DNA of 64,000 nt from Escherichia coli O157 typing phage 4, in the sequence record KP869102; one strand, written 5' to 3'. The notes beneath the pieces were generated by a model. It saw nothing but the letters and a program-made list of their open reading frames with translations, did no database searches and was not told where the DNA came from. Below are positions 3,069 to 55,376 of this stretch, in pieces (positions within the stretch are counted from its first letter, which is position 1; each line of letters opens with the position of its first letter). Position numbers and translations under genes: made by a program.

Positions 3069-4091
3069 TTATTCACTTTTCAGAGTTACTTTAACAACCA
3101 GCTCTGGGCGGGTGTTAACTGCCAGCATGGAAGTTTCAGATTCGATTTTCTGTTCTCTCAGGTAGGCAGAGTGTTTATACCACATATACAGCTCTTGAGC
3201 TGGGGTATTTGCATCTTCCAGAGTGTCAGCCGGAGCAAAGTGCAGCTGGAACATCTGATCGATACCCATAGGCATCAGACGAGCCTCACCGTCCGGAATG
3301 TTGCCAGAGATGTCTTCGATGAAGGTCATACCCTTGTGTTCAAACACACGGTAAATGCTCTGTTCACCACCTGCACCCAGACGACGACGCAGCGGTTCCT
3401 GAGAAGAGCTGTAGTAGGTGTAAGCCAGCTCTACCAGCGGGTGATGAACCAGTGCTGAGAAGAATTTCGGAGAGCACAGCGCGATGATGTTATAAGCACC
3501 AGCGTTGTCACCAGCCTGCAGAGCAATGTGCAGACGTGCATCTTCGATTACTTCCATCGGGTCCTGTGCTGCATTTTTAGGATCGATTTCGATAGATTTC
3601 TGGGAAACGCCCCACAGTTTGTAATAGTCATACTGACAGGTGGTGTCGCCAGGGGCATATGATTTACCCAGAACTGCAGCAAACAGCGCTTTTTCACGCA
3701 GAGTTTCGTGGGTCAGACGGATACGACGAACCACACGGGTAACTACGTCCTGAACAGTTTTCGGTGCATCAGGGGTGAAGTAGCGACGGAAGTTCTGAAC
3801 ATCCGCAGCGGTGATGCCTTTATCCAGCGGGAAGAACGGGATGTTCAGGTTTTTGATCTGAGCACGTTCGCTACCAACGTAGTTACGTTCACCACCACGG
3901 CGACGTGCAGCAATATCACCAACCACTTCATCTACACGTTCAATCTGTGCGATTGTTGAGGTGCCTAGATGAGTTTCAAACAGATCCATACCAGTGATCA
4001 GTCGGAATTGGCGCGGAACCAGTTCAAGAGTAGCACCTAAATCAACAATACCAAAATCATCTTTACGGGTGTTAGCCATTATTTTCTCCAA
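3069..4091 (-). CDS. major capsid protein
   Basis: 340-aa ORF at the lambda gpE position (portal-scaffold-decoration-capsid order); GC-richer codon usage than surroundings. Confidence 0.75.
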   Translation of the reverse strand: MEKIMANTRKDDFGIVDLGATLELVPRQFRLITGMDLFETHLGTSTIAQIERVDEVVGDIAARRRGGERNYVGSERAQIKNLNIPFFPLDKGITAADVQNFRRYFTPDAPKTVQDVVTRVVRRIRLTHETLREKALFAAVLGKSYAPGDTTCQYDYYKLWGVSQKSIEIDPKNAAQDPMEVIEDARLHIALQAGDNAGAYNIIALCSPKFFSALVHHPLVELAYTYYSSSQEPLRRRLGAGGEQSIYRVFEHKGMTFIEDISGNIPDGEARLMPMGIDQMFQLHFAPADTLEDANTPAQELYMWYKHSAYLREQKIESETSMLAVNTRPELVVKVTLKSE

Positions 4092-4125: not shown

Positions 4126-4500
4126 TTATTCCTGAACTTTGTTGCCTTTGGCTTCAAGCGCTGCCAGAACTGCTTCAGCTGCCGCTGTGCCGCCAGCAAC
4201 TTTCAAATGAGCTTTAGCGAAGGTTACACCGCGAACAGCAACAACCAGCTTGTACTTCTCGCCAACTTTCAGCGGTTCTGCAAGATTTACACGACCAGCA
4301 GAGTCGGGCAGAAGCGCACGGTCAACCAGCACACCAAAGGTGTCTGAACCATCTTGATTAGCCAGAGTACCGGTTTTGGTAACTACTGCGCCAGCAACGT
4401 GATCAGCAGTGAGAGTGATTTCAATTTCTTTAAAGTTGAAACCTGCATCGCTAGAATCAACTTTGCCGAGCACGATATCAGAATATTGAGTGGTGATCAT
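4126..4500 (-). CDS. putative head decoration protein
   Basis: 124-aa ORF between scaffold and capsid genes (lambda gpD position); sequence itself not clearly gpD-like. Confidence 0.45.
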   Translation of the reverse strand: MITTQYSDIVLGKVDSSDAGFNFKEIEITLTADHVAGAVVTKTGTLANQDGSDTFGVLVDRALLPDSAGRVNLAEPLKVGEKYKLVVAVRGVTFAKAHLKVAGGTAAAEAVLAALEAKGNKVQE

Positions 4501-4521: not shown

Positions 4522-5502
4522 TTATTTATTGGATTCTTTACGTGCGCGAGCCAGAGCTTTAGCGACGTTTTCAGCAATAATGTCTTCAGCAGATTTAGCA
4601 ATGTCGTCCACCACGACATCACCATCTTTACCTTGCTCTGTGGTTGCGAACTCTTCTTTAGCTTTTTCAACTTTAGCTTCCAGTTCAGCAATACGAGCTT
4701 GAGCTTTTTCCAGCAATTCAACAACAGGGGCGTTAGCTTTATCCAGCATGAATTCGACCAGAGGTGCGTGGTCTTCTTCAGTGGTGAAGCTTAACGCCTG
4801 AGCTTTTTCCAGCATTTTAGCTTTTTCAACTTCTACCTGAGCCTTGATGATTTCTTCAGCTTTTTCATTGGTAGCTTTCAGTTCTTCGAACTGTTTCAGC
4901 AGGTCCAGGTACTCTTGAGACTTGGTTACGTCTTCCACCGGATTCTCCTCGGTATTTGCGGATTTATCAACATTGTCCACAGCGTCTGTAACAACTTCTT
5001 CTGTGGTTTCCTGTGCCGCTTTAATAAGTTTCCCTTCTTCATCGAAGAGATCAGCGGTCATCTGCTCAAAAACTTGTTGGGTTTTCAACAGAGTGTATTG
5101 GTCAACAATACTTAAATCTTTACCTTCTTTAGCAGCTTTGTGAATGGTTACGTTATCACAACGTTCTTCTAACCACTGCACACAAGCCTCTGCATCAGCC
5201 TGTGCCCACTCCCAATCTGGGTGTTCTTTTGCCCAAGCTTCTTCCTCAATCTCGAACCCAAGCAGGTGAGCCAGTGCCTTAGCATCGTCATACCACATAT
5301 CGAAAAAACGACGCAGGTATTCTTCAAAGCTAAGTTCAACAGTAACTTGGCGAAGAGCCTTAACGATATCCTCTGTTAACTGCTCGGGCTTAAGATCGCT
5401 CTTCATTAAAAGAGATACAGGCCTATTGTTAGCGCTATAGCCTTGCGCCTTGTGGCACAGGGCAATCCCTTTCTCTTTAATAGTGATTGTTTTTTCAGAC
5501 AT
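4522..5502 (-). CDS. putative capsid scaffolding protein
   Basis: 326-aa acidic, coiled-coil-rich protein (AELEAKVEKAKEE) upstream of capsid gene. Confidence 0.5.
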   Translation of the reverse strand: MSEKTITIKEKGIALCHKAQGYSANNRPVSLLMKSDLKPEQLTEDIVKALRQVTVELSFEEYLRRFFDMWYDDAKALAHLLGFEIEEEAWAKEHPDWEWAQADAEACVQWLEERCDNVTIHKAAKEGKDLSIVDQYTLLKTQQVFEQMTADLFDEEGKLIKAAQETTEEVVTDAVDNVDKSANTEENPVEDVTKSQEYLDLLKQFEELKATNEKAEEIIKAQVEVEKAKMLEKAQALSFTTEEDHAPLVEFMLDKANAPVVELLEKAQARIAELEAKVEKAKEEFATTEQGKDGDVVVDDIAKSAEDIIAENVAKALARARKESNK

Positions 5503-5933
5503 TACTCATTGCCCTCTTCTACAACACTGATCCCGAAGTTTACGTTGGTGATCTCGCCAGTTTCTTCATCAACATTGCCAGTTGCCTGAATGCTTAGTCC
5601 ACCAACAATGCCAGCCTTCTTAGCTTCCCATAATTCAGGATTGTTGTATTTAACTTTAGCAACCCAAGAGCCAGCCTTGATGACCTGCTCAGTACCAATT
5701 ACCACAACATCAAACTCTTCTTGAATCCACGTCTTTTCAATAGTGAATGCATCTGTGGAGGTCAAGTGGAAAAGGTTTTCAGAAACTAGGCCTGCGGCGT
5801 ATGCTGCGTCCCAATTATCTTTAGCCTTTTTGATGGTGTCTTTACTCATCCACTCACCGTGAGCGTCTTTAGTGTCCGGTTCGTAGATGATTTCGTAGGA
5901 AATCATTTCTTCCTGTGGCATCTTATTCCCCAT
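5502..5933 (-). CDS. hypothetical head morphogenesis protein (protease position)
   Basis: ORF between portal and scaffold; trimmed to internal ATG to avoid portal overlap. Confidence 0.3.
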   Translation of the reverse strand: MGNKMPQEEMISYEIIYEPDTKDAHGEWMSKDTIKKAKDNWDAAYAAGLVSENLFHLTSTDAFTIEKTWIQEEFDVVVIGTEQVIKAGSWVAKVKYNNPELWEAKKAGIVGGLSIQATGNVDEETGEITNVNFGISVVEEGNE

Positions 5934-5988
5934 GTGGATTATTTTATCACGCCAAAGGAGGTTTTGCAACCCCCTGTGTTGATAATTT

Positions 5989-7545
5989 TTAATTTTCCAT
6001 GTTGGATATGGAATTATCTCTGGTTGATGACATCTTAGAAGTGCCGTTGCCAGTGGATCCTGCAGCCATACCATCACCAGCCCTGCTGATATCCTGGCCC
6101 AAGAGCTTCATCAGCTCTTCTTGATCCATGTCTTCGTCAAATCTTTCATCAAACCCGCCTACTTCAAGAATCTTATTAATTACTGCAGGAGTTTTTGGCA
6201 AGTAACCTACAGCACCGATCCTCTGGACAAACTTGGAGAAGCTCTCCATGTCCACTTCTTCAATCAGACCAGGTTTCAGTTTAGGCATATCATCATCTTC
6301 AAGGATGATACCATTCAATGCCAGAAGCTGTGGAATAAGATCCTTATTGAAGGCTTCAGTGATAATATCTATATCACGCTGAACAAAATGACCATGGATA
6401 GACTGTTTTGACTCAGACAGAGAGAAGGATCCAACGTTATCGTTACCGAGGTTAATAAAGCCAGCACCGAAACGGTCAAGAATCGCCTTCTTACGGGCAT
6501 CGATCAAATCTTTAGTGGAATATTGCTTACCCATACCGTCAACCCCCTTCAGGGTCATGGAGTAAAGCTCTTTACCAGACTTATCTCTATCAGACGGAAG
6601 TATAAAGAAACTTTGCTCACCACTATGGGCGTTTGCTGCGTCAAGCATAAGGTCTGCAACCATTCTCCCTTCCATTGAATTCGGGTCAATACTGGCCTTG
6701 TTCAAAATATTGGAAGGAATTTTCAGCTCAAGCACCCCACCAAGGTCTTTGGAACAGCCAACAACCTCAAGGTTTTCAATCAGAACTTTCTCACGGAAAG
6801 ATCTGTAGCAACCTATCATCGGTGACACACCTGCAGGGTTAGATTCTGTTCCTGACAGGGTCATGAGCATAAGCTTTTTAGCAGGGATGAAAATTTCAGG
6901 CTCATTAAAGCCTTTTGAAGGCATTGCAGCAAGAGGTCCAGCCCAGCGTGCATTCTGAGTGTTTAGAAATGCATTAGGTGACTGATAAATACCTGTCAGT
7001 GTTCTACTATTCTTGTCAAAGACAAACGGCTCTGATCTGGACAAACTGGCCTGAGGTCGGAATGCAATTTTATCAATAAGAAGCATCCCGGCATATTTAC
7101 CTTCTTTCTCTCTGCGGTATACTTTCTCAAACAGTGAAAAACCATACTCGTTAAAGGTAGCTGCGCTTCTTGCAATATCCCGAAGGGTTTGTTGGTTTGC
7201 CAAATTACGCAAAGAATACTCTATAAGCTCGGCAGCTTTCTTAGAGTCTTCACTTTTAACATTATAAAGGATCTTAAAATCATTGAATGCTTTCGTGATG
7301 AAAACATATTTTGTATCTAAGGCAGTAGCAACTGTGGAATCACATTTCATAGTCTCCACTGTGGCAATCAGCTGAGGCCAACGCAATTCCTCAACCATCA
7401 TAGATTGCGATTCTGCCATAATTTGGGAAAGTGCGCCAGAACCGATCTCACTCATACGAACATTATGAGTTGGTGCGCCTGCGTTCCCAGATTTATTCAC
7501 AGTTTTGGCTGTGGCGTTGTGTTTCCTGCGGTTCTTTTTGGACAC
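5989..7545 (-). CDS. portal protein
   Basis: 518-aa ORF immediately downstream of terminase large subunit; size and synteny. Confidence 0.65.
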   Translation of the reverse strand: MSKKNRRKHNATAKTVNKSGNAGAPTHNVRMSEIGSGALSQIMAESQSMMVEELRWPQLIATVETMKCDSTVATALDTKYVFITKAFNDFKILYNVKSEDSKKAAELIEYSLRNLANQQTLRDIARSAATFNEYGFSLFEKVYRREKEGKYAGMLLIDKIAFRPQASLSRSEPFVFDKNSRTLTGIYQSPNAFLNTQNARWAGPLAAMPSKGFNEPEIFIPAKKLMLMTLSGTESNPAGVSPMIGCYRSFREKVLIENLEVVGCSKDLGGVLELKIPSNILNKASIDPNSMEGRMVADLMLDAANAHSGEQSFFILPSDRDKSGKELYSMTLKGVDGMGKQYSTKDLIDARKKAILDRFGAGFINLGNDNVGSFSLSESKQSIHGHFVQRDIDIITEAFNKDLIPQLLALNGIILEDDDMPKLKPGLIEEVDMESFSKFVQRIGAVGYLPKTPAVINKILEVGGFDERFDEDMDQEELMKLLGQDISRAGDGMAAGSTGNGTSKMSSTRDNSISNMEN

Positions 7546-7647: not shown

Positions 7648-8736
7648 TTAGATAAAACGCTTGAACATAGAAGGTGATGAGATTGATGGAATCACACAAG
7701 GAAGTGCTACCTCCTCTTTCTCCAGGAAATTAATCGCAGAAGCTACACAGTCGGCCCAGTCGTCTTTCCTGTTAAATGTTGATCTTTCCCCGTTGAATTT
7801 TTCAAGTTCAGTCAGAAATGCTTCCAGAGTATCAGGATGGAAACTGGATTTTACAATCCTAACCATTCCTTGTTGGGCAAGATTGGCAAAAGGTGAGAAC
7901 CTTGTCAGTTTAGATTTGTTGGAAGGCATTGGGTCTTCTTCAACCCTAAACCCTTCGGCGAGCAAGGATCTGGAGGATGTTAAGAACTCACTCTTACCTG
8001 CCTGACCGGGGTCCACAGAGAATACGATTATACAATCATCACCATCAAACTGCGCCTGTTTCCTGATGATCACATCTCGTTCACCAGCCTTTTTACAGAA
8101 CTTGCCTTCCAGACCTGTGGAATACCTCCCGTCATCCACGTTCTCAGGACAATAATCACCGGACAGGTAATAAAAGCCGTCGCTATCTTTACTTACCTTA
8201 ACACTGGCGGTAAAGTCAGGAAATTTATTACCGGAAGTTCTCTCGGTTCCTGCCTTATCCCATGCCCTGCAAGATACTGATCCAAGGGGTACTCTATCGG
8301 CATCACGAAGGAAAGATCTTTGAAAATAGTTTGCACCCTCAGGCTTTGCAAACCAGTTGCCATGAAGAAGCTGGGCTTTTTCAAGCTCGGGCAGACCTTC
8401 AAGAAAAGCAAGGTATTCTGGGTTGTCTCTCAAGCAGACAGGATTATCGAAGATTGTTGCGCCTATAAACGAGAATGACAACGGTCTTGGCTTGATCTCT
8501 ACACCAAGTCCGTTAACCGTGGTGTATTTCTCTATCAACTCTTCCTTAGAGTCTCCCCAAATAAATTCACCGTCGCGTCGGATAAAATATCTTTTCTTAC
8601 CGCATTTCTCCGGATCTGGATACCCTTCATCGTCCAACCACCATCTAACCAGTTTGGCAAGCATGTGTTCTGAATCTGGGTTACAGCTGATAACCATTCT
8701 TGATGGATACTTTGACTGAGATCGCAGACGAGACAT
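7648..8736 (-). CDS. terL: terminase large subunit, C-terminal nuclease part (exon 2 or separately translated half)
   Basis: 362 aa with terminase-like VISCNP segment; continues the Walker A/B-containing ORF at 9650..10078. Confidence 0.75.
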   Translation of the reverse strand: MSRLRSQSKYPSRMVISCNPDSEHMLAKLVRWWLDDEGYPDPEKCGKKRYFIRRDGEFIWGDSKEELIEKYTTVNGLGVEIKPRPLSFSFIGATIFDNPVCLRDNPEYLAFLEGLPELEKAQLLHGNWFAKPEGANYFQRSFLRDADRVPLGSVSCRAWDKAGTERTSGNKFPDFTASVKVSKDSDGFYYLSGDYCPENVDDGRYSTGLEGKFCKKAGERDVIIRKQAQFDGDDCIIVFSVDPGQAGKSEFLTSSRSLLAEGFRVEEDPMPSNKSKLTRFSPFANLAQQGMVRIVKSSFHPDTLEAFLTELEKFNGERSTFNRKDDWADCVASAINFLEKEEVALPCVIPSISSPSMFKRFI

Positions 8737-9649
8737 CAGGTAGTCTATCTGTTCCCATTCGAATTGTGTCGTTTATGTTCAGGCAAGGTCGCTAGTCTTG
8801 CCCCGCCATTTTCAGGCAGCTGCATGTCTCCATGCAGACCAGACTATATCTTATGAATGTGTAAATACTCTGCCGCTCTAAGAATAGTTTCCTCATCTTC
8901 TTGGAAGAAACCTAAAGCTCTGTTGCATTTATCACAAAGCAACCCTCTTACAGCACCAGTTTTATGGTCATGATCAACACAAAAGAAATCTCTGTACCCT
9001 TGCGTCCTATACTCATCGAGAGATATTCTACAAATGGCACACTTATGATCTTGATCTGAGAGTAGACGATAGTATTCATCTTTTGTTATGTGAAATTTCT
9101 TCTCAATCTGATAAAACTTTTCACACATCTTACACCTGTTCGTAACCAGATATACTTTACCATAGTCACGTTTTGTGTAAAAACTATCAGCGAGCATACT
9201 TTCATGACAAGATTTGCATTCAAAAAGTTCACCTTTCTTCAGCAAGTCTTGAATAAATAATGCTGCGTCATCTCTCTTAACCATATTTTTGTTTTTACGA
9301 GATCCACCCTTCCTGTAGTACATATAGCATTCCTTGCATGTACCTGAGTATCCATCCTTGCTCTTAGATGATAAAAAGAAATCATCAATAGGTAGAACTC
9401 TTTGGCAATCCATACATTTTTTAGTATTACACATTCACCCTCCCGTTTCGAATCGCTTGATTCTACGTCTTTCGACTAGTCGTTGAACGTTCATCCTCTC
9501 GGATGCTTCGCTGCGGATTATCTAAACTAACACACTGTTACCATACCTTCGATCTCTCTTCGAAGCCTCTATCATGTTACCATGACAGGTTGGTGGTGTC
9601 AATAATAAAGATTTCCCCGCAATTAGGGAGGTTTTACGAGAGCTACAAA
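8737..9649 (-). mobile_element. intervening sequence in terL: candidate group I intron (or free-standing HEG insertion)
   Basis: ~910 bp between the two terL halves; contains endonuclease ORF flanked by 215-nt and ~107-nt non-coding segments. Confidence 0.6.
8844..9434 (-). CDS. homing endonuclease, endonuclease VII/HNH family
   Basis: Cys-rich N-terminus plus CVDHDHKTGAVRGLLCDKCN motif (Endo VII-type HNH). Confidence 0.75.
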   Translation of the reverse strand: MCNTKKCMDCQRVLPIDDFFLSSKSKDGYSGTCKECYMYYRKGGSRKNKNMVKRDDAALFIQDLLKKGELFECKSCHESMLADSFYTKRDYGKVYLVTNRCKMCEKFYQIEKKFHITKDEYYRLLSDQDHKCAICRISLDEYRTQGYRDFFCVDHDHKTGAVRGLLCDKCNRALGFFQEDEETILRAAEYLHIHKI

Positions 9650-10078
9650 TTAACCCTCATCGAAGCAAACCATGGTGTACTCAAGCCCTTGATGGTTAAG
9701 CTTATCTTGTACATACTCCATGTGGCAGTATTTTACAACAGCTCCCTTTTTGCTTCTATCCCACTTGCCAGTGTTCGGATCAAACCGTGGAAAAATGAAC
9801 TTATGATCCTTCTCTCTGAACTTTGGCTTAATGTTTTCAGGCAGATCGCTATAAATAGCTACTGCTTTAGGCCATAGTCCACCCTCACCTTCCAACTGTG
9901 GGGTTGTTCTTCGGAACATAACCACAGAGCTGTGGGGGTCATCAATAATTTTAAGTGGCATCAACTGCAAGAGAAACGACTTGCCAGACCCTGCGGCACC
10001 GCCGATTACCAAAATATCTGCATCGTTTTCGAGGATCATCTTCTGCTTTTCAGAACACGGTCCGTAAATCTTAGACAT
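9650..10078 (-). CDS. terL: terminase large subunit, N-terminal ATPase part (exon 1)
   Basis: Walker A GGAAGSGKS and Walker B VCFDE; ORF ends at a stop right after Walker B. Confidence 0.8.
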   Translation of the reverse strand: MSKIYGPCSEKQKMILENDADILVIGGAAGSGKSFLLQLMPLKIIDDPHSSVVMFRRTTPQLEGEGGLWPKAVAIYSDLPENIKPKFREKDHKFIFPRFDPNTGKWDRSKKGAVVKYCHMEYVQDKLNHQGLEYTMVCFDEG

Positions 10079-37398: not shown

Positions 37399-37429
37399 TT
37401 GACAAAGCTTTGTTTAGATAGGTATAATT
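37399..37429 (+). promoter_or_regulatory. sigma70-like promoter
   Basis: TTGACA - 19 nt - TATAAT. Confidence 0.5.
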
Positions 37430-38747: not shown

Positions 38748-38791
38748 TACAGAAGGGTGGTTATTCCACCCTTAGATATCTAAAACAGTTG

Positions 38792-38820
38792 TTGACAAAC
38801 AGGTAAGATTTAGATATTAT
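38792..38820 (+). promoter_or_regulatory. sigma70-like promoter
   Basis: TTGACA - 17 nt - TATTAT upstream of gene at 38851. Confidence 0.55.
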
Positions 38821-38850: not shown

Positions 38851-39162
38851 ATGGCTACAATACAAGAGAGACTGAATAAAATATACTGCCTGTTTGTCTA
38901 TAACGGCGAGACAATTTTGGCAAATAAAGGATCCAAGAATGTGTGGATCAAGGACAGGGGTGGTAATATAATCAACTTAGCGTTGCTACGTGAGCGCCGA
39001 CACAGATTCTTTATCGAGTCTCGGATTATTGAAAGCAGCACCTGCTACAGAACAGGCGATAAAGTAATTGTTGACAATGATACGTGGTATGTGGTAGACT
39101 GGCAATCATTGAGCTGTGATGCTTCTGACAATCGTAAGTATTCCCTAGTGATTGCTAAATAA
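38851..39162 (+). CDS. hypothetical protein
   Basis: 103-aa ORF with GGAGAAGGAG RBS. Confidence 0.45.
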   Translation: MATIQERLNKIYCLFVYNGETILANKGSKNVWIKDRGGNIINLALLRERRHRFFIESRIIESSTCYRTGDKVIVDNDTWYVVDWQSLSCDASDNRKYSLVIAK

Positions 39163-39222: not shown

Positions 39223-40272
39223 ATGAATTTAACACCTCGCAGCACCATGGTACACGGCATGAAAGAAAAACAGAACGGTTTCGAACCTATGAGTAATAAA
39301 ATGTTTGGTATGCCGGGTGGTATTATGGAAACATACAGCTACCCAACACCTGTTGTTGACCACGTTCTTTATATCGACGATTTGGAAGACTTACAAGATC
39401 ATATGTCTCGTCTGCAGACGATCCGTATGGCTCAGCCGGAAGAAAGCATTCGGGTGATCATCAATAGCCCTGGGGGTTGCGTGCACATTGCAATGGCTTA
39501 TCTGCAGGCATTCCGCGAGTCTCAGGCAAGCGTTGTTGCACATGCTGAAGGGATGTGCTGCTCTGCTGGAACAATCTTATGGCTTGGTTGTAAAGAACGT
39601 ACTGTGGCTCCGGACACAGAGTTTATGTTCCACTACTATCAAGGTGGCACTTATGGTAACGGTGTGAACATGAATACTCAGGTCAGCTACTGGAAAAAAC
39701 GTTTTGAACGCCTGATCGAAAAATACTACGGTGGGGTGCTGACAGAAGATGAGATCGCATCCATCACAGCTGGTGGCGAAGTGTGGTTGGACGGAGAAGA
39801 GCTGGCAGCACGCACTGGAGCTATTATTCTGGATGAAGGCAACATACAACGCATCCAGAACGGACAAAAACCGAAAAAGCTTCTGGCAAAAGGTGATGAA
39901 GAAGGCGTGTTAGGTGAAGCAGGTCTTCCGGAGATTCACCAGTGCACATCTTTAGATGAGTTAGTTCATGCTGTTGAATCTGCAAAAGCGGGTGGTTCGA
40001 AAGGTGATGTTCACACTGTGTTCCTGAATCTGCAGATGGAAAGTGGCGAGACCGTCAGAATTGCCCTGGGTGAGATTACTTCAGAAGATCTGCAGAGATT
40101 CTCTGTCGTTGAACTTCAGGATATTCTGTCTCAATTGAAGACTACTCTGAACGGCGGTGAAGAGGTTAAGGTGAAAGATAAGACGCGCAAGCGTCTGGTG
40201 GACAATATTATTAAAACAGCAAAAGAGCTCAATGAAAAAATCCTGGGTGCAGGAATTGTCGAAGAAGCTTAA
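39223..40272 (+). CDS. ClpP-like serine protease with C-terminal extension
   Basis: INSPGG and CCSAGT motifs (ClpP/S14-like) in N-terminal ~200 aa; ~150-aa acidic C-terminal extension. Confidence 0.6.
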   Translation: MNLTPRSTMVHGMKEKQNGFEPMSNKMFGMPGGIMETYSYPTPVVDHVLYIDDLEDLQDHMSRLQTIRMAQPEESIRVIINSPGGCVHIAMAYLQAFRESQASVVAHAEGMCCSAGTILWLGCKERTVAPDTEFMFHYYQGGTYGNGVNMNTQVSYWKKRFERLIEKYYGGVLTEDEIASITAGGEVWLDGEELAARTGAIILDEGNIQRIQNGQKPKKLLAKGDEEGVLGEAGLPEIHQCTSLDELVHAVESAKAGGSKGDVHTVFLNLQMESGETVRIALGEITSEDLQRFSVVELQDILSQLKTTLNGGEEVKVKDKTRKRLVDNIIKTAKELNEKILGAGIVEEA

Positions 40273-40323: not shown

Positions 40324-40857
40324 ATGACTTGTGCTAGAAAACCTGATGAACAACGTAACGCCTACGATGAGTATGTGACACCGGAGTGGTGTGCAGAAGG
40401 GCTGTATGACCTTATTCCGTTCCCAGAAGACTGGACCTACTTAGAGCCTTGCAGGAATAGTGCCTCAGGTGTGTTCTACTCCCGTATGCCGTTAGGATCT
40501 GCATGGGGAGAAATCCAAGAAGGTGTTGACTATCTGAATACAGAATACAACCATGTTGACTGTATTATCACCAACCCGCCGTACAGCCTGGCTCGTGAGT
40601 TTGTGGACAAGGCGTTGAAAGATGCCGACGTAGTTATTATGCTTTTGCGTCTTAATTTTCTGGAAAGCAAGGCCAGATTTGAATGGTGGCTTGATAATGC
40701 ACCTACCACTGTGATCACAATATCTAAGCGCCCGTCATTCCAATCCAATGGTAGAACGGATGGGCAGGCATATGCATATTTTGTATGGGACAAGAAAAAC
40801 CGTCTAGACTTGCCGCCATTTATGTGGTTGGCACCACCAGAGGCAGATTTGAAATGA
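40324..40857 (+). CDS. DNA methyltransferase (NPPY-type, N6-adenine or N4-cytosine)
   Basis: IITNPPY motif; 177 aa. Confidence 0.6.
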   Translation: MTCARKPDEQRNAYDEYVTPEWCAEGLYDLIPFPEDWTYLEPCRNSASGVFYSRMPLGSAWGEIQEGVDYLNTEYNHVDCIITNPPYSLAREFVDKALKDADVVIMLLRLNFLESKARFEWWLDNAPTTVITISKRPSFQSNGRTDGQAYAYFVWDKKNRLDLPPFMWLAPPEADLK

Positions 40858-49953: not shown

Positions 49954-50217
49954 ATGAACATCCTGATGTGGGTTATAGCAGTGGCGTTTGTTGCATGTTT
50001 TTGCTGCTGGGTTGCGGTGAGGATTTCTGTAGCTACCCTTCGGAAGTTGGGGTTCTCAGAATGGGATATTAATATCCTTTCTTTTCGCAATGAGACAATA
50101 TCAGCCGCCCTGCTTTGTAAGAAATTCAAGTGGGAACCTTGTGAGGTCATGAACTATCTAAGAACGGGAGATATCCCTGAAAGATTTAAAAAAGTTCTTG
50201 ACGGTAAGGATAAATGA
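49954..50217 (+). CDS. small membrane protein
   Basis: N-terminal TM helix; 87 aa. Confidence 0.4.
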   Translation: MNILMWVIAVAFVACFCCWVAVRISVATLRKLGFSEWDINILSFRNETISAALLCKKFKWEPCEVMNYLRTGDIPERFKKVLDGKDK

Positions 50218-52558: not shown

Positions 52559-52793
52559 CACACAATTAGCTGCCCGGCTAAAGTGCTGGAAGCACCTATA
52601 ACACATCTTTCAACTAAATTTCCCACCACAACAATCACTTACCTCCCATACATGACTGTTTGCTTGTTTAGTGAGCAGTCATGCCTTGACATTCTTGCCT
52701 ATCCTGATAAAATTAAGTTCTTCTCTTTTCTTTTACCGAGTAATTCGGGTTTTCTGTTCTCTTCGGTTTGAAGGGGTATGGAGATACACCTGA

Positions 52794-52893
52794 NNNNNNN
52801 NNNNNNNNNNNNNNNNNNNNNNNNNNNNNNNNNNNNNNNNNNNNNNNNNNNNNNNNNNNNNNNNNNNNNNNNNNNNNNNNNNNNNNNNNNNNN
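52794..52893. other. assembly gap (run of N)
   Basis: 100 consecutive N. Confidence 0.99.
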
Positions 52894-52944
52894 TTAGTGG
52901 CGGGAAGTTTTCCCGCCTGTGTTTTTAATTATACTTATTGAGAT

Positions 52945-53205
52945 TTACTTGTCAACACTATTTTTTAAATTATTGTGGCGCAAAATGTTTAAAATCTCTT
53001 CAACGTCATCAACACGGCGGCAATTTTTAAACGCTACCAATTGCCCCATGATTTTAATCACTGGGCGGCCTTGCCAGTGCCCCTGGAGAAAGCGCGCCTT
53101 GACTTTATCAGTGGAACTATCACGCCACCAAACGGCCTTGTTATTGCAGTAGTAAAAATTATTCAGGACAATATCAACTTTATCAAAATTTTTTAATTTA
53201 CGCAT
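52945..53205 (-). CDS. hypothetical protein
   Basis: 86-aa minus-strand ORF. Confidence 0.4.
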   Translation of the reverse strand: MRKLKNFDKVDIVLNNFYYCNNKAVWWRDSSTDKVKARFLQGHWQGRPVIKIMGQLVAFKNCRRVDDVEEILNILRHNNLKNSVDK

Positions 53206-53413
53206 AGTGTTTACTCCTTCCTTCTTGCTTTGATGTGGTTAGTATATCCGGACTATTCCAAGGTGTCAAGCTTTAAATAAAATCACTGTCAATGATATTT
53301 TTAACACCATAAAACGGCCCTGGGTGATGTTTTCAGGCTAAGAAAGGGGATTGCATAGGTAGGGGCTTTTGTGGCGTTTGTGGGGCCAACCAGGGGCGCT
53401 ATTCGTAGGATAG

Positions 53414-53442
53414 AAATAAAAAGCCCCGCACAATGGCGGGGC
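53414..53442 (-). terminator. rho-independent terminator
   Basis: On minus strand GCCCCGC-CATTGT-GCGGGGC followed by TTTTTATTT. Confidence 0.55.
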
Positions 53443-53531
53443 GTTGGTTGTTATTTGTCTTTATGGCGGTATCGTTCCGCTTGTCGTTCACGTTCCAAAA
53501 GTAGGCCCGGCAATTTACGATCATAATGATT

Positions 53532-53633
53532 CCNNNNNNNNNNNNNNNNNNNNNNNNNNNNNNNNNNNNNNNNNNNNNNNNNNNNNNNNNNNNNNNNNNN
53601 NNNNNNNNNNNNNNNNNNNNNNNNNNNNNNNNN
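53532..53633. other. assembly gap (run of N)
   Basis: About 100 consecutive N. Confidence 0.99.
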
Positions 53634-53949
53634 TGGCCTGAATCGCCCGGATACGGCGTTTTATAACCTCCTGATCCGTGCAATCGTATCCCCAAAAGTC
53701 TACAATTTTCGCGCCGCCAGCTTTTAAGCGGTATAATGTTTCTTGCATTTTGTAAGCTGGGATCGGTCGCGGTGTTACCTGGTCGCCTTTTTCATCCTTG
53801 TACTTGATTATGTAGTCCTCGTTGTCGTTGAATACCCAAAAAGGGTACTCTGTAAGGGCGTTGCTTTCTTTTTCGTTTTTAGATTGGATCTTGTTTACAA
53901 TTAAAGCCGTAGCAATAGCGCCAATAATAAAACTAGCCCCGCTGATCAT
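53634..53949 (-). CDS. hypothetical protein with N-terminal TM helix, partial (runs into gap)
   Basis: Minus ORF from ATG ~53949; 3-prime end lost in N run. Confidence 0.35.
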
Positions 53950-54024
53950 GTTACTTTCTCCTTTCATTGTGTTGATAAACTATCTTTATAGATGGCCCTG
54001 TTACCAGGACCACCGAAAAAATAA

Positions 54025-54270
54025 CTATTTCACAATGCCTACAAAACAGATCCCGCCTTCACCTATATAGGCAATATCGGTAATTTTATAATTTGTCAAG
54101 ATCCGCGTGTTCAGATCATTAATAAAATCGGTCATCGCGTTGGTGTAGTTGTCTTCCGTGTCTAAGGCATAATCCCAGGTGTAAACCTTTTTACGTCCGA
54201 AGCCTTTTACCATGATACGGGCGCTTTTGGTGTTGGTAGGGGCATAATATTTGGTGATTAGTGCTGCCAT
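54025..54270 (-). CDS. hypothetical protein
   Basis: 81 aa, AGGAG RBS. Confidence 0.4.
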   Translation of the reverse strand: MAALITKYYAPTNTKSARIMVKGFGRKKVYTWDYALDTEDNYTNAMTDFINDLNTRILTNYKITDIAYIGEGGICFVGIVK

Positions 54271-54359
54271 GGTTTTAACTCCTCTGAATTAGTTCAGTGT
54301 TAACAGTATAAAGTTTACTTTATTGATGGCCCTGAAGTCAAGGCCATCTAAAAATAAAC

Positions 54360-54701
54360 TTACTCGTTTTCTTCCAGCTCCGCAAGCTCTTCTTTTGCTT
54401 CTTCTAACTCTGTCTGTAGTTCCTGGTATTCTTCATCGTCCTCAATATCCAGGCTGTCGATGTAGTCGCTAAATCCGCAGCGGTAAGCGATAGGATCTAG
54501 CTCCTTGAGGATACGCGACGGAAGAAAAGAAATGTTTCCGATCATAATTTCGCCGTAGATCTCGTCTAACCATTCATCATAGTTTTCGTCGTACTTGTCC
54601 TCGTCGATTTCAAAGTTATCGATCTTGTTCTCAAGGTCTGCGATCTGTTTTTTCAGCGCGGCGATCTGCATAGCTTTTTCTGCGGCGGTCATAGTAGTCA
54701 T
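54360..54701 (-). CDS. hypothetical acidic coiled-coil protein
   Basis: 113 aa, AAGGAG RBS. Confidence 0.45.
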   Translation of the reverse strand: MTTMTAAEKAMQIAALKKQIADLENKIDNFEIDEDKYDENYDEWLDEIYGEIMIGNISFLPSRILKELDPIAYRCGFSDYIDSLDIEDDEEYQELQTELEEAKEELAELEENE

Positions 54702-54980
54702 GGTGTTTTCTCCTTTTGTGTGCTCTGGGAAGTTTTCCCGTTTACGTGTTTAAGTATAGCGATCTAAGTTAGTTTGTCAATTAAAAATTTAAGAAAAATT
54801 TTGCAAAACTGTTAGCGCTACTCATTAACATTTGCGCCAGGATGTAACCAATGATGCAAACGATAATAGTTACCTTTGTGTGCTGGCGTGTAGTACTCAT
54901 CTTTAAGCCCCCCTTTCCGCTCAACTGTGGTTAGTTTACTTTATTGATGGCCCTGGAGTCAAGGCCATCTAAAAATAAAC

Positions 54981-55376
54981 TCAGTACGTTTTCAGTACTT
55001 TCCCGTCCAACCTGTCTAACTGAATCTCAATAGCTGCAGAAAACCTATTGTAAACCACATCGCCCAAGGAGTCCAGCCAATCTATAACGTTATACACCTG
55101 CTCTTTATTCTTGCAAGTCCGGATCCGTTTCATTACGTAAGACGGATCAATATTAGTACTCCCGTTGTTGTGGTCATGCGCCTGGCCTGCTGCACTGGTT
55201 ATAGATTTTACAACCACCTGAAAGGGCTTTAAGGTGCCTTTTGCGTTCATCTCACGCGCTTTTGCGGCGCGGTTGTTATATGTTACACAACGGCGGCAAA
55301 TGTTGAATAAATGCATGTCAATAATTTTTTCATCGTTTGCCAGTTCGTTCATGATGCGGCGTACGTTCTTATTCAT
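54981..55376 (-). CDS. hypothetical protein
   Basis: 131 aa, AGAGGA RBS. Confidence 0.45.
   Translation of the reverse strand: MNKNVRRIMNELANDEKIIDMHLFNICRRCVTYNNRAAKAREMNAKGTLKPFQVVVKSITSAAGQAHDHNNGSTNIDPSYVMKRIRTCKNKEQVYNVIDWLDSLGDVVYNRFSAAIEIQLDRLDGKVLKTY

Follow-up and report, generated by a model that had tools for sequence, protein, structure and literature searches.

A ClpP-like protease gene of an rV5-like phage of Escherichia coli: probably an intracellular enzyme encoded outside the head module rather than a capsid-maturation protease

The described systems closest to the gene considered here are the cellular ClpP of MEROPS family S14 (E. coli, PDB 1TYF), the ClpP-related head maturation proteases of phages (NCBIfam NF045542, with the protease-scaffold and protease-capsid fusions and the S49 enzymes similar to lambda gpC), and a set of accessory phage ClpP-like genes that includes rV5 gp122, ICP1 gp211, CB7 gp184, VH7D gp227 and those of pakpunaviruses. 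The accessory genes have in common a ClpP-fold domain with its Ser and His; all of them lie in replication, nucleotide-metabolism or early neighbourhoods, and several carry C-terminal extensions. One such gene is present in a stretch of 64,000 nucleotides (nt) of Escherichia coli O157 typing phage 4 (sequence record KP869102), hereafter called the window. Because it is encoded away from the head genes, the first-pass annotation of the window had proposed that it might be either a relocated prohead protease or a host-targeting protease. The analysis reported here indicates that its product is probably an early or middle intracellular enzyme rather than a capsid-maturation enzyme.

The 1050-nt open reading frame (ORF) has the same sequence (100% identity) as ORF114, an 'ATP-dependent protease' gene, in Escherichia phage JES2013 (NC_022323.1), an rV5-like myovirus (Vequintavirus) in whose record position 1 of the window corresponds to position 50145. 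It begins with ATG, 8 nt after an AAGGA motif. The rV5 homologue gp122, of 349 amino acids (aa), was named 'ClpP (ATP-dependent) protease subunit' in 2013, and its best outside match was the ClpP of Vibrio phage ICP1 (PMC3606486, Table S3). The gene is therefore already annotated, and it is discussed generically in the literature, in which we found no experimental study of the rV5-type gene, no characterized phage-encoded ClpP, and no experimental characterization of any member of the accessory set.

The motifs INSPGG (residues 80-85, nt 39460-39477) and CCSAGT (residues 112-117, nt 39556-39573) had been taken in the first-pass annotation as the mark of a ClpP/S14-type serine protease, and the motifs, Pfam, a profile search of the PDB, Foldseek and the alignment of the catalytic residues all agree with this assignment. 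Pfam CLP_protease (PF00574) matched residues 59-168 with E=2e-12 and 47.7 bits (gathering cut-off 20.2), the match spanning only positions 32-143 of the 182 of the profile. A profile built from 12 family members retrieved ClpP chains first among the PDB sequences, with E-values down to 6e-13, and in its alignment the catalytic Ser and His coincide with Ser114 and His137. In the AlphaFold2 (AF2) monomer model the mean predicted local distance difference test score (pLDDT) was 73, rising to 85-93 across most of residues 45-215, and the top 50 Foldseek matches of the model in the PDB were all ClpP (E about 1e-9, target template modelling score 0.56-0.74).

Ser114 and His137 are invariant in all 18 sequences of a MAFFT alignment that included E. 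coli ClpP (with its positions checked), and both, together with the INSPGG motif of the oxyanion loop, are unchanged in all 12 of the family sequences aligned, the most divergent of which are 40% identical to the protein of the window. The residues whose loss would have spoken against a protease are thus in place, and the domain search returned CLP_protease rather than a non-protease fold. The third position of the triad is occupied by Glu186 in this phage, by the same residue in 2 of the 11 aligned family relatives, and by Gln in the remaining 9. As judged from the model, the region of the ClpP handle strand and helix is present. The region of the N-terminal axial loop and helix A of cellular ClpP is replaced in this family by a different conserved motif, residues 25-44, which is conserved and yet falls in the part of the monomer model (residues 1-44) that is predicted to be disordered.

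The NCBIfam models place the protein in neither of the two curated families. The NCBIfam ClpP model TIGR00493 gave 33 bits (cut-off 308.6) and the ClpP subfamily models 38-39 bits (cut-offs 228-249), while the best-scoring model was NF045542, 'head maturation protease, ClpP-related', with 60.4 bits (cut-off 120). On this last model, fusions of the protease to a scaffold or capsid protein, taken from viral contigs, reach 93-182 bits, against 50-68 for other accessory proteins of the ClpP-like type. The match to PHROG 5410 was nearly complete (E=4.9e-155, residues 24-345 on positions 4-322 of 323), followed by PHROG 1827 (E=2.6e-40). On sequence, the protein is assigned to an accessory clade of its own, represented by PHROG 5410/1827. 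In agreement with this, the accessory proteins of ICP1, CB7, VH7D, Priunavirus and Pakpunavirus were mutual best matches in an all-against-all BLASTP comparison (66-105 bits), in which the protease-scaffold and protease-capsid fusions reached 40-63 bits and E. coli ClpP 20-44 bits.

The genomic settings of the relatives are those of non-structural genes. A tblastn search with the protease domain matched 1183 phage records, and the nearer relatives, labelled 'ATP-dependent protease', lie in non-structural regions. In the T4-like (KVP40-like) phage VH7D, gp227 lies between frd and uvsX, beside gp32 and gp59; the 'protease subunit' of Pakpunavirus Ab1 is found among small genes, tRNAs, dCMP deaminase and ligase; the gene of the T5-like Priunavirus PSTCR5 is near a Ser/Thr phosphatase gene and next to early-type genes; and in metagenomic large myoviruses the ClpP-like gene adjoins helicase and clamp-loader genes. 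The prohead proteases of T4-like and T5-like phages are gp21 and pb11, and therefore the ClpP-like gene of these phages cannot be their head protease. In ICP1, gp211 (326 aa, with an extension) follows PhoH at a distance of three genes, in the vicinity of nrdB and DNA ligase, and the nucleotide-metabolism genes in the range gp176-gp211 peak at 12 min, the late structural genes at 16 min (PMC7567579).

Within the window, the ClpP-like gene has PhoH, ribonucleotide reductase and methyltransferase-like genes as neighbours, and is on the strand opposite to that of the head module (Table 1). The first-pass annotation had likewise placed it amid nucleotide-metabolism genes and far from the head genes; by coordinates, the distance from the major capsid gene is about 35 kb. 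The head module itself contains a candidate for the maturation protease. According to the first-pass annotation, the canonical protease slot held only a 144-aa ORF. Such an ORF does exist, starting from an internal ATG at position 5933, but it is part of a longer gene, annotated at 5502-6074 and located between the portal and the scaffold homologue, whose product matches almost the whole of Pfam Peptidase_S78_2, 'putative phage serine protease XkdF' (E=1.1e-17, positions 8-123 of 126). This product is 40% identical (E=5e-18) to the 'capsid protease' gp125 of ICP1, also a Peptidase_S78_2 protein, and has in common with it a His (in DAHGE) and a Ser (in GLSI). It shows no sequence similarity to the ClpP-like protein.

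The likeness to ICP1 extends to the whole module. The ICP1 scaffold gp124 is 26% identical over 299 aa to the scaffold homologue of the window, and the ICP1 coat protein gp122 is 34% identical to the major capsid protein; the ICP1 order of portal (gp127), protease (gp125), scaffold (gp124), decoration protein (gp123) and coat protein (gp122) is that of the window, with an additional gene, gp126, after the portal. The function of gp124 as a scaffold has been shown experimentally (PMC10945586), while gp125, whose gene is transcribed late, along with the capsid cluster, is the predicted protease of head maturation (PMC7567579). For peptidases of the XkdF family, a role in processing the head was put forward independently in a comparison of jumbo phages (PMC7824862). 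A protein of the gp125 type, in a role that is so far predicted (PMC7567579, PMC7824862) and unrelated in sequence to the ClpP-like protein, fills the protease slot of the head module.

In RefSeq the XkdF-type gene is labelled 'DNA methyltransferase'. The 379-position profile of PHROG 1530 matches it only at positions 219-373, i.e. at the C-terminal end; this profile seems to represent a methyltransferase-XkdF fusion, and the label is probably an error carried over from it.

The ClpP-like gene is predicted, from sequence patterns, to form a two-gene unit with the preceding orf113. The unit is delimited on one side by a sigma70-like promoter, the same site that was predicted in rV5 as 'P121' (PMC3606486, Table S4), and on the other by an intrinsic terminator-like hairpin identical to the terminator 't122' predicted in rV5 (-14.9 kcal/mol). 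The late-promoter-like motif of rV5, TGGTAAAATA, stands before head genes in the window; its copy nearest to the ClpP-like gene has one mismatch and is located about 250 bp 5' of the gene, inside orf113. Relatives of orf113 were found neither in Pfam nor in NCBIfam nor in the PDB. An iterative search showed a homologue of it 5' of the protease gene in each of the 17 related viral contigs, as well as in Certrevirus CB7. In the genera that are further removed, the two genes are separated by an additional ORF of about 160 aa, whose C-terminal half is weakly similar to orf113.

The order PhoH, orf113, ClpP-like gene and a 177-aa methyltransferase-like gene persists in related viral contigs whose protein identity is as low as about 43%. 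At the most distant locus (37%) no PhoH was detected, but orf113, the protease gene and the methyltransferase-like gene are all present. In Certrevirus CB7 the same set occurs, interrupted after PhoH by genes for an anaerobic ribonucleotide reductase. PhoH accompanies the ClpP-like gene in rV5-like phages, CB7 and ICP1; in the Pakpunavirus, T4-like and T5-like contexts this linkage is missing, and we do not propose PhoH as an unfoldase partner.

The first-pass suggestion of a relocated prohead protease is not supported by these results, because the head module has a protease of its own and because the clade of the ClpP-like gene is a widespread accessory one, associated with non-structural genes. 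In its strongest form, this explanation would make the protein the true, or a second, maturation protease, encoded outside the head module and carried by its C-terminal domain into the procapsid in order to degrade the scaffold. Lambda uses a head protease of the ClpP/S49 fold, and the major capsid protein of the window is of the lambda gpE type (Phage_cap_E). In addition, NF045542 is the best curated model for the protein, PHROG head-maturation families also match it (E=1e-14 to 1e-22), its combination of a protease domain and a C-terminal extension resembles the protease-scaffold fusions in viral contigs, and the lack of a docking pocket for Clp ATPases, discussed below, is also expected of a prohead protease. 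However, the score on NF045542 is half of the cut-off and falls short of those of real fusions, the gene is remote from the head module, with a predicted promoter of host type and a predicted terminator of its own, the C-terminal domain has no similarity to the scaffold homologue, and the XkdF-type protein shares a His and a Ser with ICP1 gp125. The nearest relatives occur in T4-like and T5-like phages provided with gp21 and pb11, and the nucleotide-metabolism genes in the block of the ICP1 homologue peak before the late genes.

Virion data are available for rV5. The mass-spectrometry table of rV5 virions lists 19 proteins, from which gp122 and the XkdF-like gp63 are both absent; the absence of gp122 is weak evidence, since the table is of limited depth and a prohead protease would usually have exited the head. 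The scaffold homologue gp62 is represented in the table by two spectra. The peptides of the major capsid protein start at residue 6, so that the coat is not trimmed at its N-terminus, and the substrate to be expected for a head protease is therefore the scaffold. Taking all this together, we consider it unlikely that the ClpP-like protein is a head protease.

A second explanation is the one implied by the database name 'ATP-dependent Clp protease proteolytic subunit', i.e. that the protein is a genuine ClpP subunit, whose rings, alone or with host ClpP, would dock to the ClpX or ClpA of the host and divert ATP-dependent proteolysis during infection. This annotation is found in many database records, and it can call on the Pfam score above the gathering cut-off, on structural matches that are all to ClpP, and on the presence of the handle strand and helix region. 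The likeness to cellular ClpP consists in the fold, the INSPGG-type loop, the positions of Ser and His, and the handle region. The differences are the replacement of Asp171 by Glu or Gln, an N-terminal gate in which the axial loop and helix A are not conserved, about 135 additional residues, an identity to E. coli ClpP of about 27% over 131 residues, and the failure to reach any of the NCBIfam ClpP cut-offs, from which the scores are far removed.

A further difference concerns the docking pocket. In E. coli ClpP, the pocket for the IGF/LGF loops of ClpX and ClpA and for acyldepsipeptides (ADEP) is formed by Y60, Y62, F82, I90, M92, F112, L114 and L189. When these residues are mapped by alignment, the eight positions are, in the ClpP-like family, R77, I/V, E99, H107, E109, T, A/S and N, all invariant or nearly so. 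With polar or smaller residues in place of this hydrophobic pocket, cooperation with Clp unfoldases such as ClpX or ClpA appears unlikely. Moreover, no gene similar to ClpX, ClpA or ClpS is present in the annotation of the phage (137-kb genome) or among the ATPases tested; as ATPases, the annotation lists a DnaB-like helicase, a kinase-like P-loop protein and a protein with a weak AAA_14 match. On these grounds it is quite unlikely that the protein is a true ClpP subunit. The term 'ATP-dependent' is doubtful for this protein, since the cooperation with ClpX or ClpA that the name implies finds no support in the sequence, and the standard annotation is probably misleading.

It is highly improbable that the protein is a degenerate, catalytically weak member acting as a chaperone, scaffold or binding protein: the ClpP/crotonase fold does include non-protease members, and the acidic third residue of the triad is Gln in most relatives, but the invariance of Ser114, His137 and INSPGG in the 12 family sequences is the pattern expected from selection for catalysis.

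Some points nevertheless weigh against the explanation that we prefer, that of an intracellular protease independent of head assembly and of Clp ATPases. By NCBIfam score the sequence lies closer to the head proteases of phages than to the ClpP of cells, and in evolution the accessory clade as a whole is also somewhat closer to the former. Demonstrated protease activity of an XkdF-family protein was not found in the literature consulted, so that the activity of the head-module candidate is predicted only, a point that also favours a head role for the ClpP-like protein. The pocket was mapped by alignment and not on an oligomer model, the promoter and the terminator are pattern matches only, the absence of gp122 from virions counts for little, and with Gln at the third position of the triad in most relatives the catalytic efficiency is uncertain.

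The C-terminal part of the protein is specific to its family. The first-pass annotation had noted a long extension; the ClpP fold ends near residue 215 and is followed by a variable linker and by a conserved domain of about 80 aa. Structure prediction, which had been suggested as a check, gave for this domain a confident AF2 model, consisting of a beta-hairpin and two long helices. The domain is conserved within the family, with F293, E297 and R322 invariant, and outside the family it is, as far as sequence and structure searches can tell, an orphan. When 1.84 billion representative proteins were scanned with hmmsearch, the only matches were to members of the family or their fragments and to two spurious repeat proteins; a profile search of PDB sequences gave only SAP-like matches below the threshold (E=0.4-1.2); and Foldseek against BFVD gave one significant match, unnamed and presumably a family member. 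The SAP-like signals had raised the idea of a SAP/HeH-like role in tethering to DNA, which was dropped in view of their weakness and of the acidic character of the domain (isoelectric point about 5). No similarity was detected between the domain of the rV5/4MG/Hena1-like proteins and the extension of ICP1 gp211, and many other accessory members, of about 180-240 aa, are devoid of such a domain.

We regard it as reasonably probable that the protein is a catalytically competent, ClpP-fold intracellular protease that is independent of Clp ATPases, takes no part in head assembly, and acts on host or phage proteins. orf113 and the ClpP-like gene probably make up a separate transcription unit, read by host RNA polymerase. 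On the model of ClpP, the protein would form rings, and would cut proteins or peptides in the cytoplasm of the infected cell. The C-terminus of ClpP emerges on the apical face, where unfoldases normally dock, and therefore seven copies of the C-terminal domain could surround the pore. This domain, the orf113 product, or both may supply target recognition or gating, and the substrates might be host proteins, phage regulators or unfolded peptides. The other proposal of the first-pass annotation, a host-targeting protease, is compatible with the data; the same has been suggested for phage ClpP in the literature, where its patchy distribution was read as a sign of a host-directed function (PMC7824862). 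PADLOC defence models gave no match for the ClpP-like protease or for orf113.

A more specific proposal can be made, which we offer as a speculation and hold to be rather doubtful in its entirety. The pair of orf113 and the ClpP-like gene might be a self-contained, ATP-independent proteolytic module, in which the polar apical surface found in place of the ClpX docking pocket would bind the protein's own C-terminal domain or the orf113 product as a gate or adaptor. The module might destroy a specific host protein, for takeover or against defence, or time the removal of a phage regulator, and the genes of ICP1, Pakpunavirus, T4-like and T5-like phages would be variants with different targeting domains.

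Table 1. Coordinates in the window of the ClpP-like gene, its domains and active-site codons, the flanking signals, and the genes of the head module.
Feature	Position (nt)	Strand	Remarks
ClpP-like protease gene	39223-40272	+	349 aa; ORF114 in JES2013; homologue of rV5 gp122
N-terminal 44 residues	39223-39354	+	Residues 1-24 variable; residues 25-44 conserved motif (N25, Y40, P41)
ClpP-fold catalytic domain, residues 45-215	39355-39867	+	AF2, Foldseek, PDB profile search
Ser114 codon, predicted nucleophile (in CCSAGT)	39562-39564	+	Alignment to E. coli ClpP Ser97
His137 codon, predicted general base (in FMFH)	39631-39633	+	Alignment to E. coli ClpP His122
Glu186 codon, third position of the triad (E. 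coli Asp171)	39778-39780	+	Alignment
Variable low-confidence linker, residues 216-265, with Vequintavirus-specific insertion	39868-40017	+	Alignment, AF2
Family-specific C-terminal domain, residues 266-343	40018-40251	+	Beta-hairpin and two long helices (AF2)
Sigma70-type promoter-like site, 5' of orf113	38792-38820	+	TTGACA-17 nt-TATTAT; 11/12 consensus match
orf113	38851-39162	+	103 aa; PHROG 5456; predicted co-transcription with ClpP-like gene
Intrinsic terminator-like hairpin, 15 nt 3' of the ClpP-like stop codon	40287-40308	+	GCCCTC-TTCG-GAGGGC followed by TTTTAT; read from sequence
Portal	5989-7545	-	Head module
XkdF-type (Peptidase_S78_2) putative prohead protease	5502-6077	-	191 aa; Pfam; between portal and scaffold homologue
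Scaffold homologue, acidic coiled-coil protein	4522-5502	-	326 aa; head module
Decoration protein	4126-4500	-	Head module
Major capsid protein, Phage_cap_E type	3069-4079	-	Pfam

Some further observations were made on the gene and on its surroundings. A megablast search found the ClpP-like gene in 118 phage records, at 80-100% DNA identity. Among them are 18 unannotated GenBank records named 'Campylobacter phage' (MG0656xx; host C. jejuni), and the nine that are listed are 99.3-99.6% identical to the ClpP-like gene; the host or the name given in these records is suspect. The 177-aa 'DNA methyltransferase' gene that lies directly 3' of the ClpP-like gene (40324-40857, + strand), and is linked to it in all the related loci, gives methyltransferase matches below the thresholds (Pfam 19-20 bits, cut-offs 26-28), and its product aligns to positions 199-381 of the 458-position profile of PHROG 799. 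Upstream, a promoter with a 12/12 match to the sigma70 consensus (37399-37428, + strand) precedes a unit composed of orf110, orf111 and PhoH, and a hairpin, GGGTGG-TTATT-CCACCC, is found at 38755-38771, after the PhoH stop codon. This part of the genome seems to be made of short, separately punctuated transcription units.

Beyond the head module, the large terminase gene is split (7648-8664 and 9650-10078, - strand) around an endonuclease VII/HNH-type gene (8844-9323), in agreement with the arrangement of intron and homing endonuclease reported for rV5. A region of about 2.6 kb (52560-55150), almost unannotated in RefSeq and drawn as 'non-coding' in the rV5 paper, coincides with the turn of transcription direction and of the cumulative GC skew. 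It contains minus-strand ORFs of 81-148 aa (53521-53967, 54025-54270 and 54360-54701) and, in three copies (at 53978, 54312 and 54933), a 49-nt element that includes a hairpin resembling a terminator, GATGGCCCTG..CAAGGCCATC.

The apparent anomaly of a ClpP-like protease encoded far from the head genes has an ordinary explanation, since the head module is provided with its own XkdF-type protease, and the ClpP-like gene is a member of a widespread accessory family. The rV5-like phages, ICP1 and the pakpunaviruses, all of which carry the conserved ClpP-like protease, are used or studied as therapeutic and model phages, and the identification of its substrates could bring to light a step in host takeover or phage regulation that depends on proteolysis.

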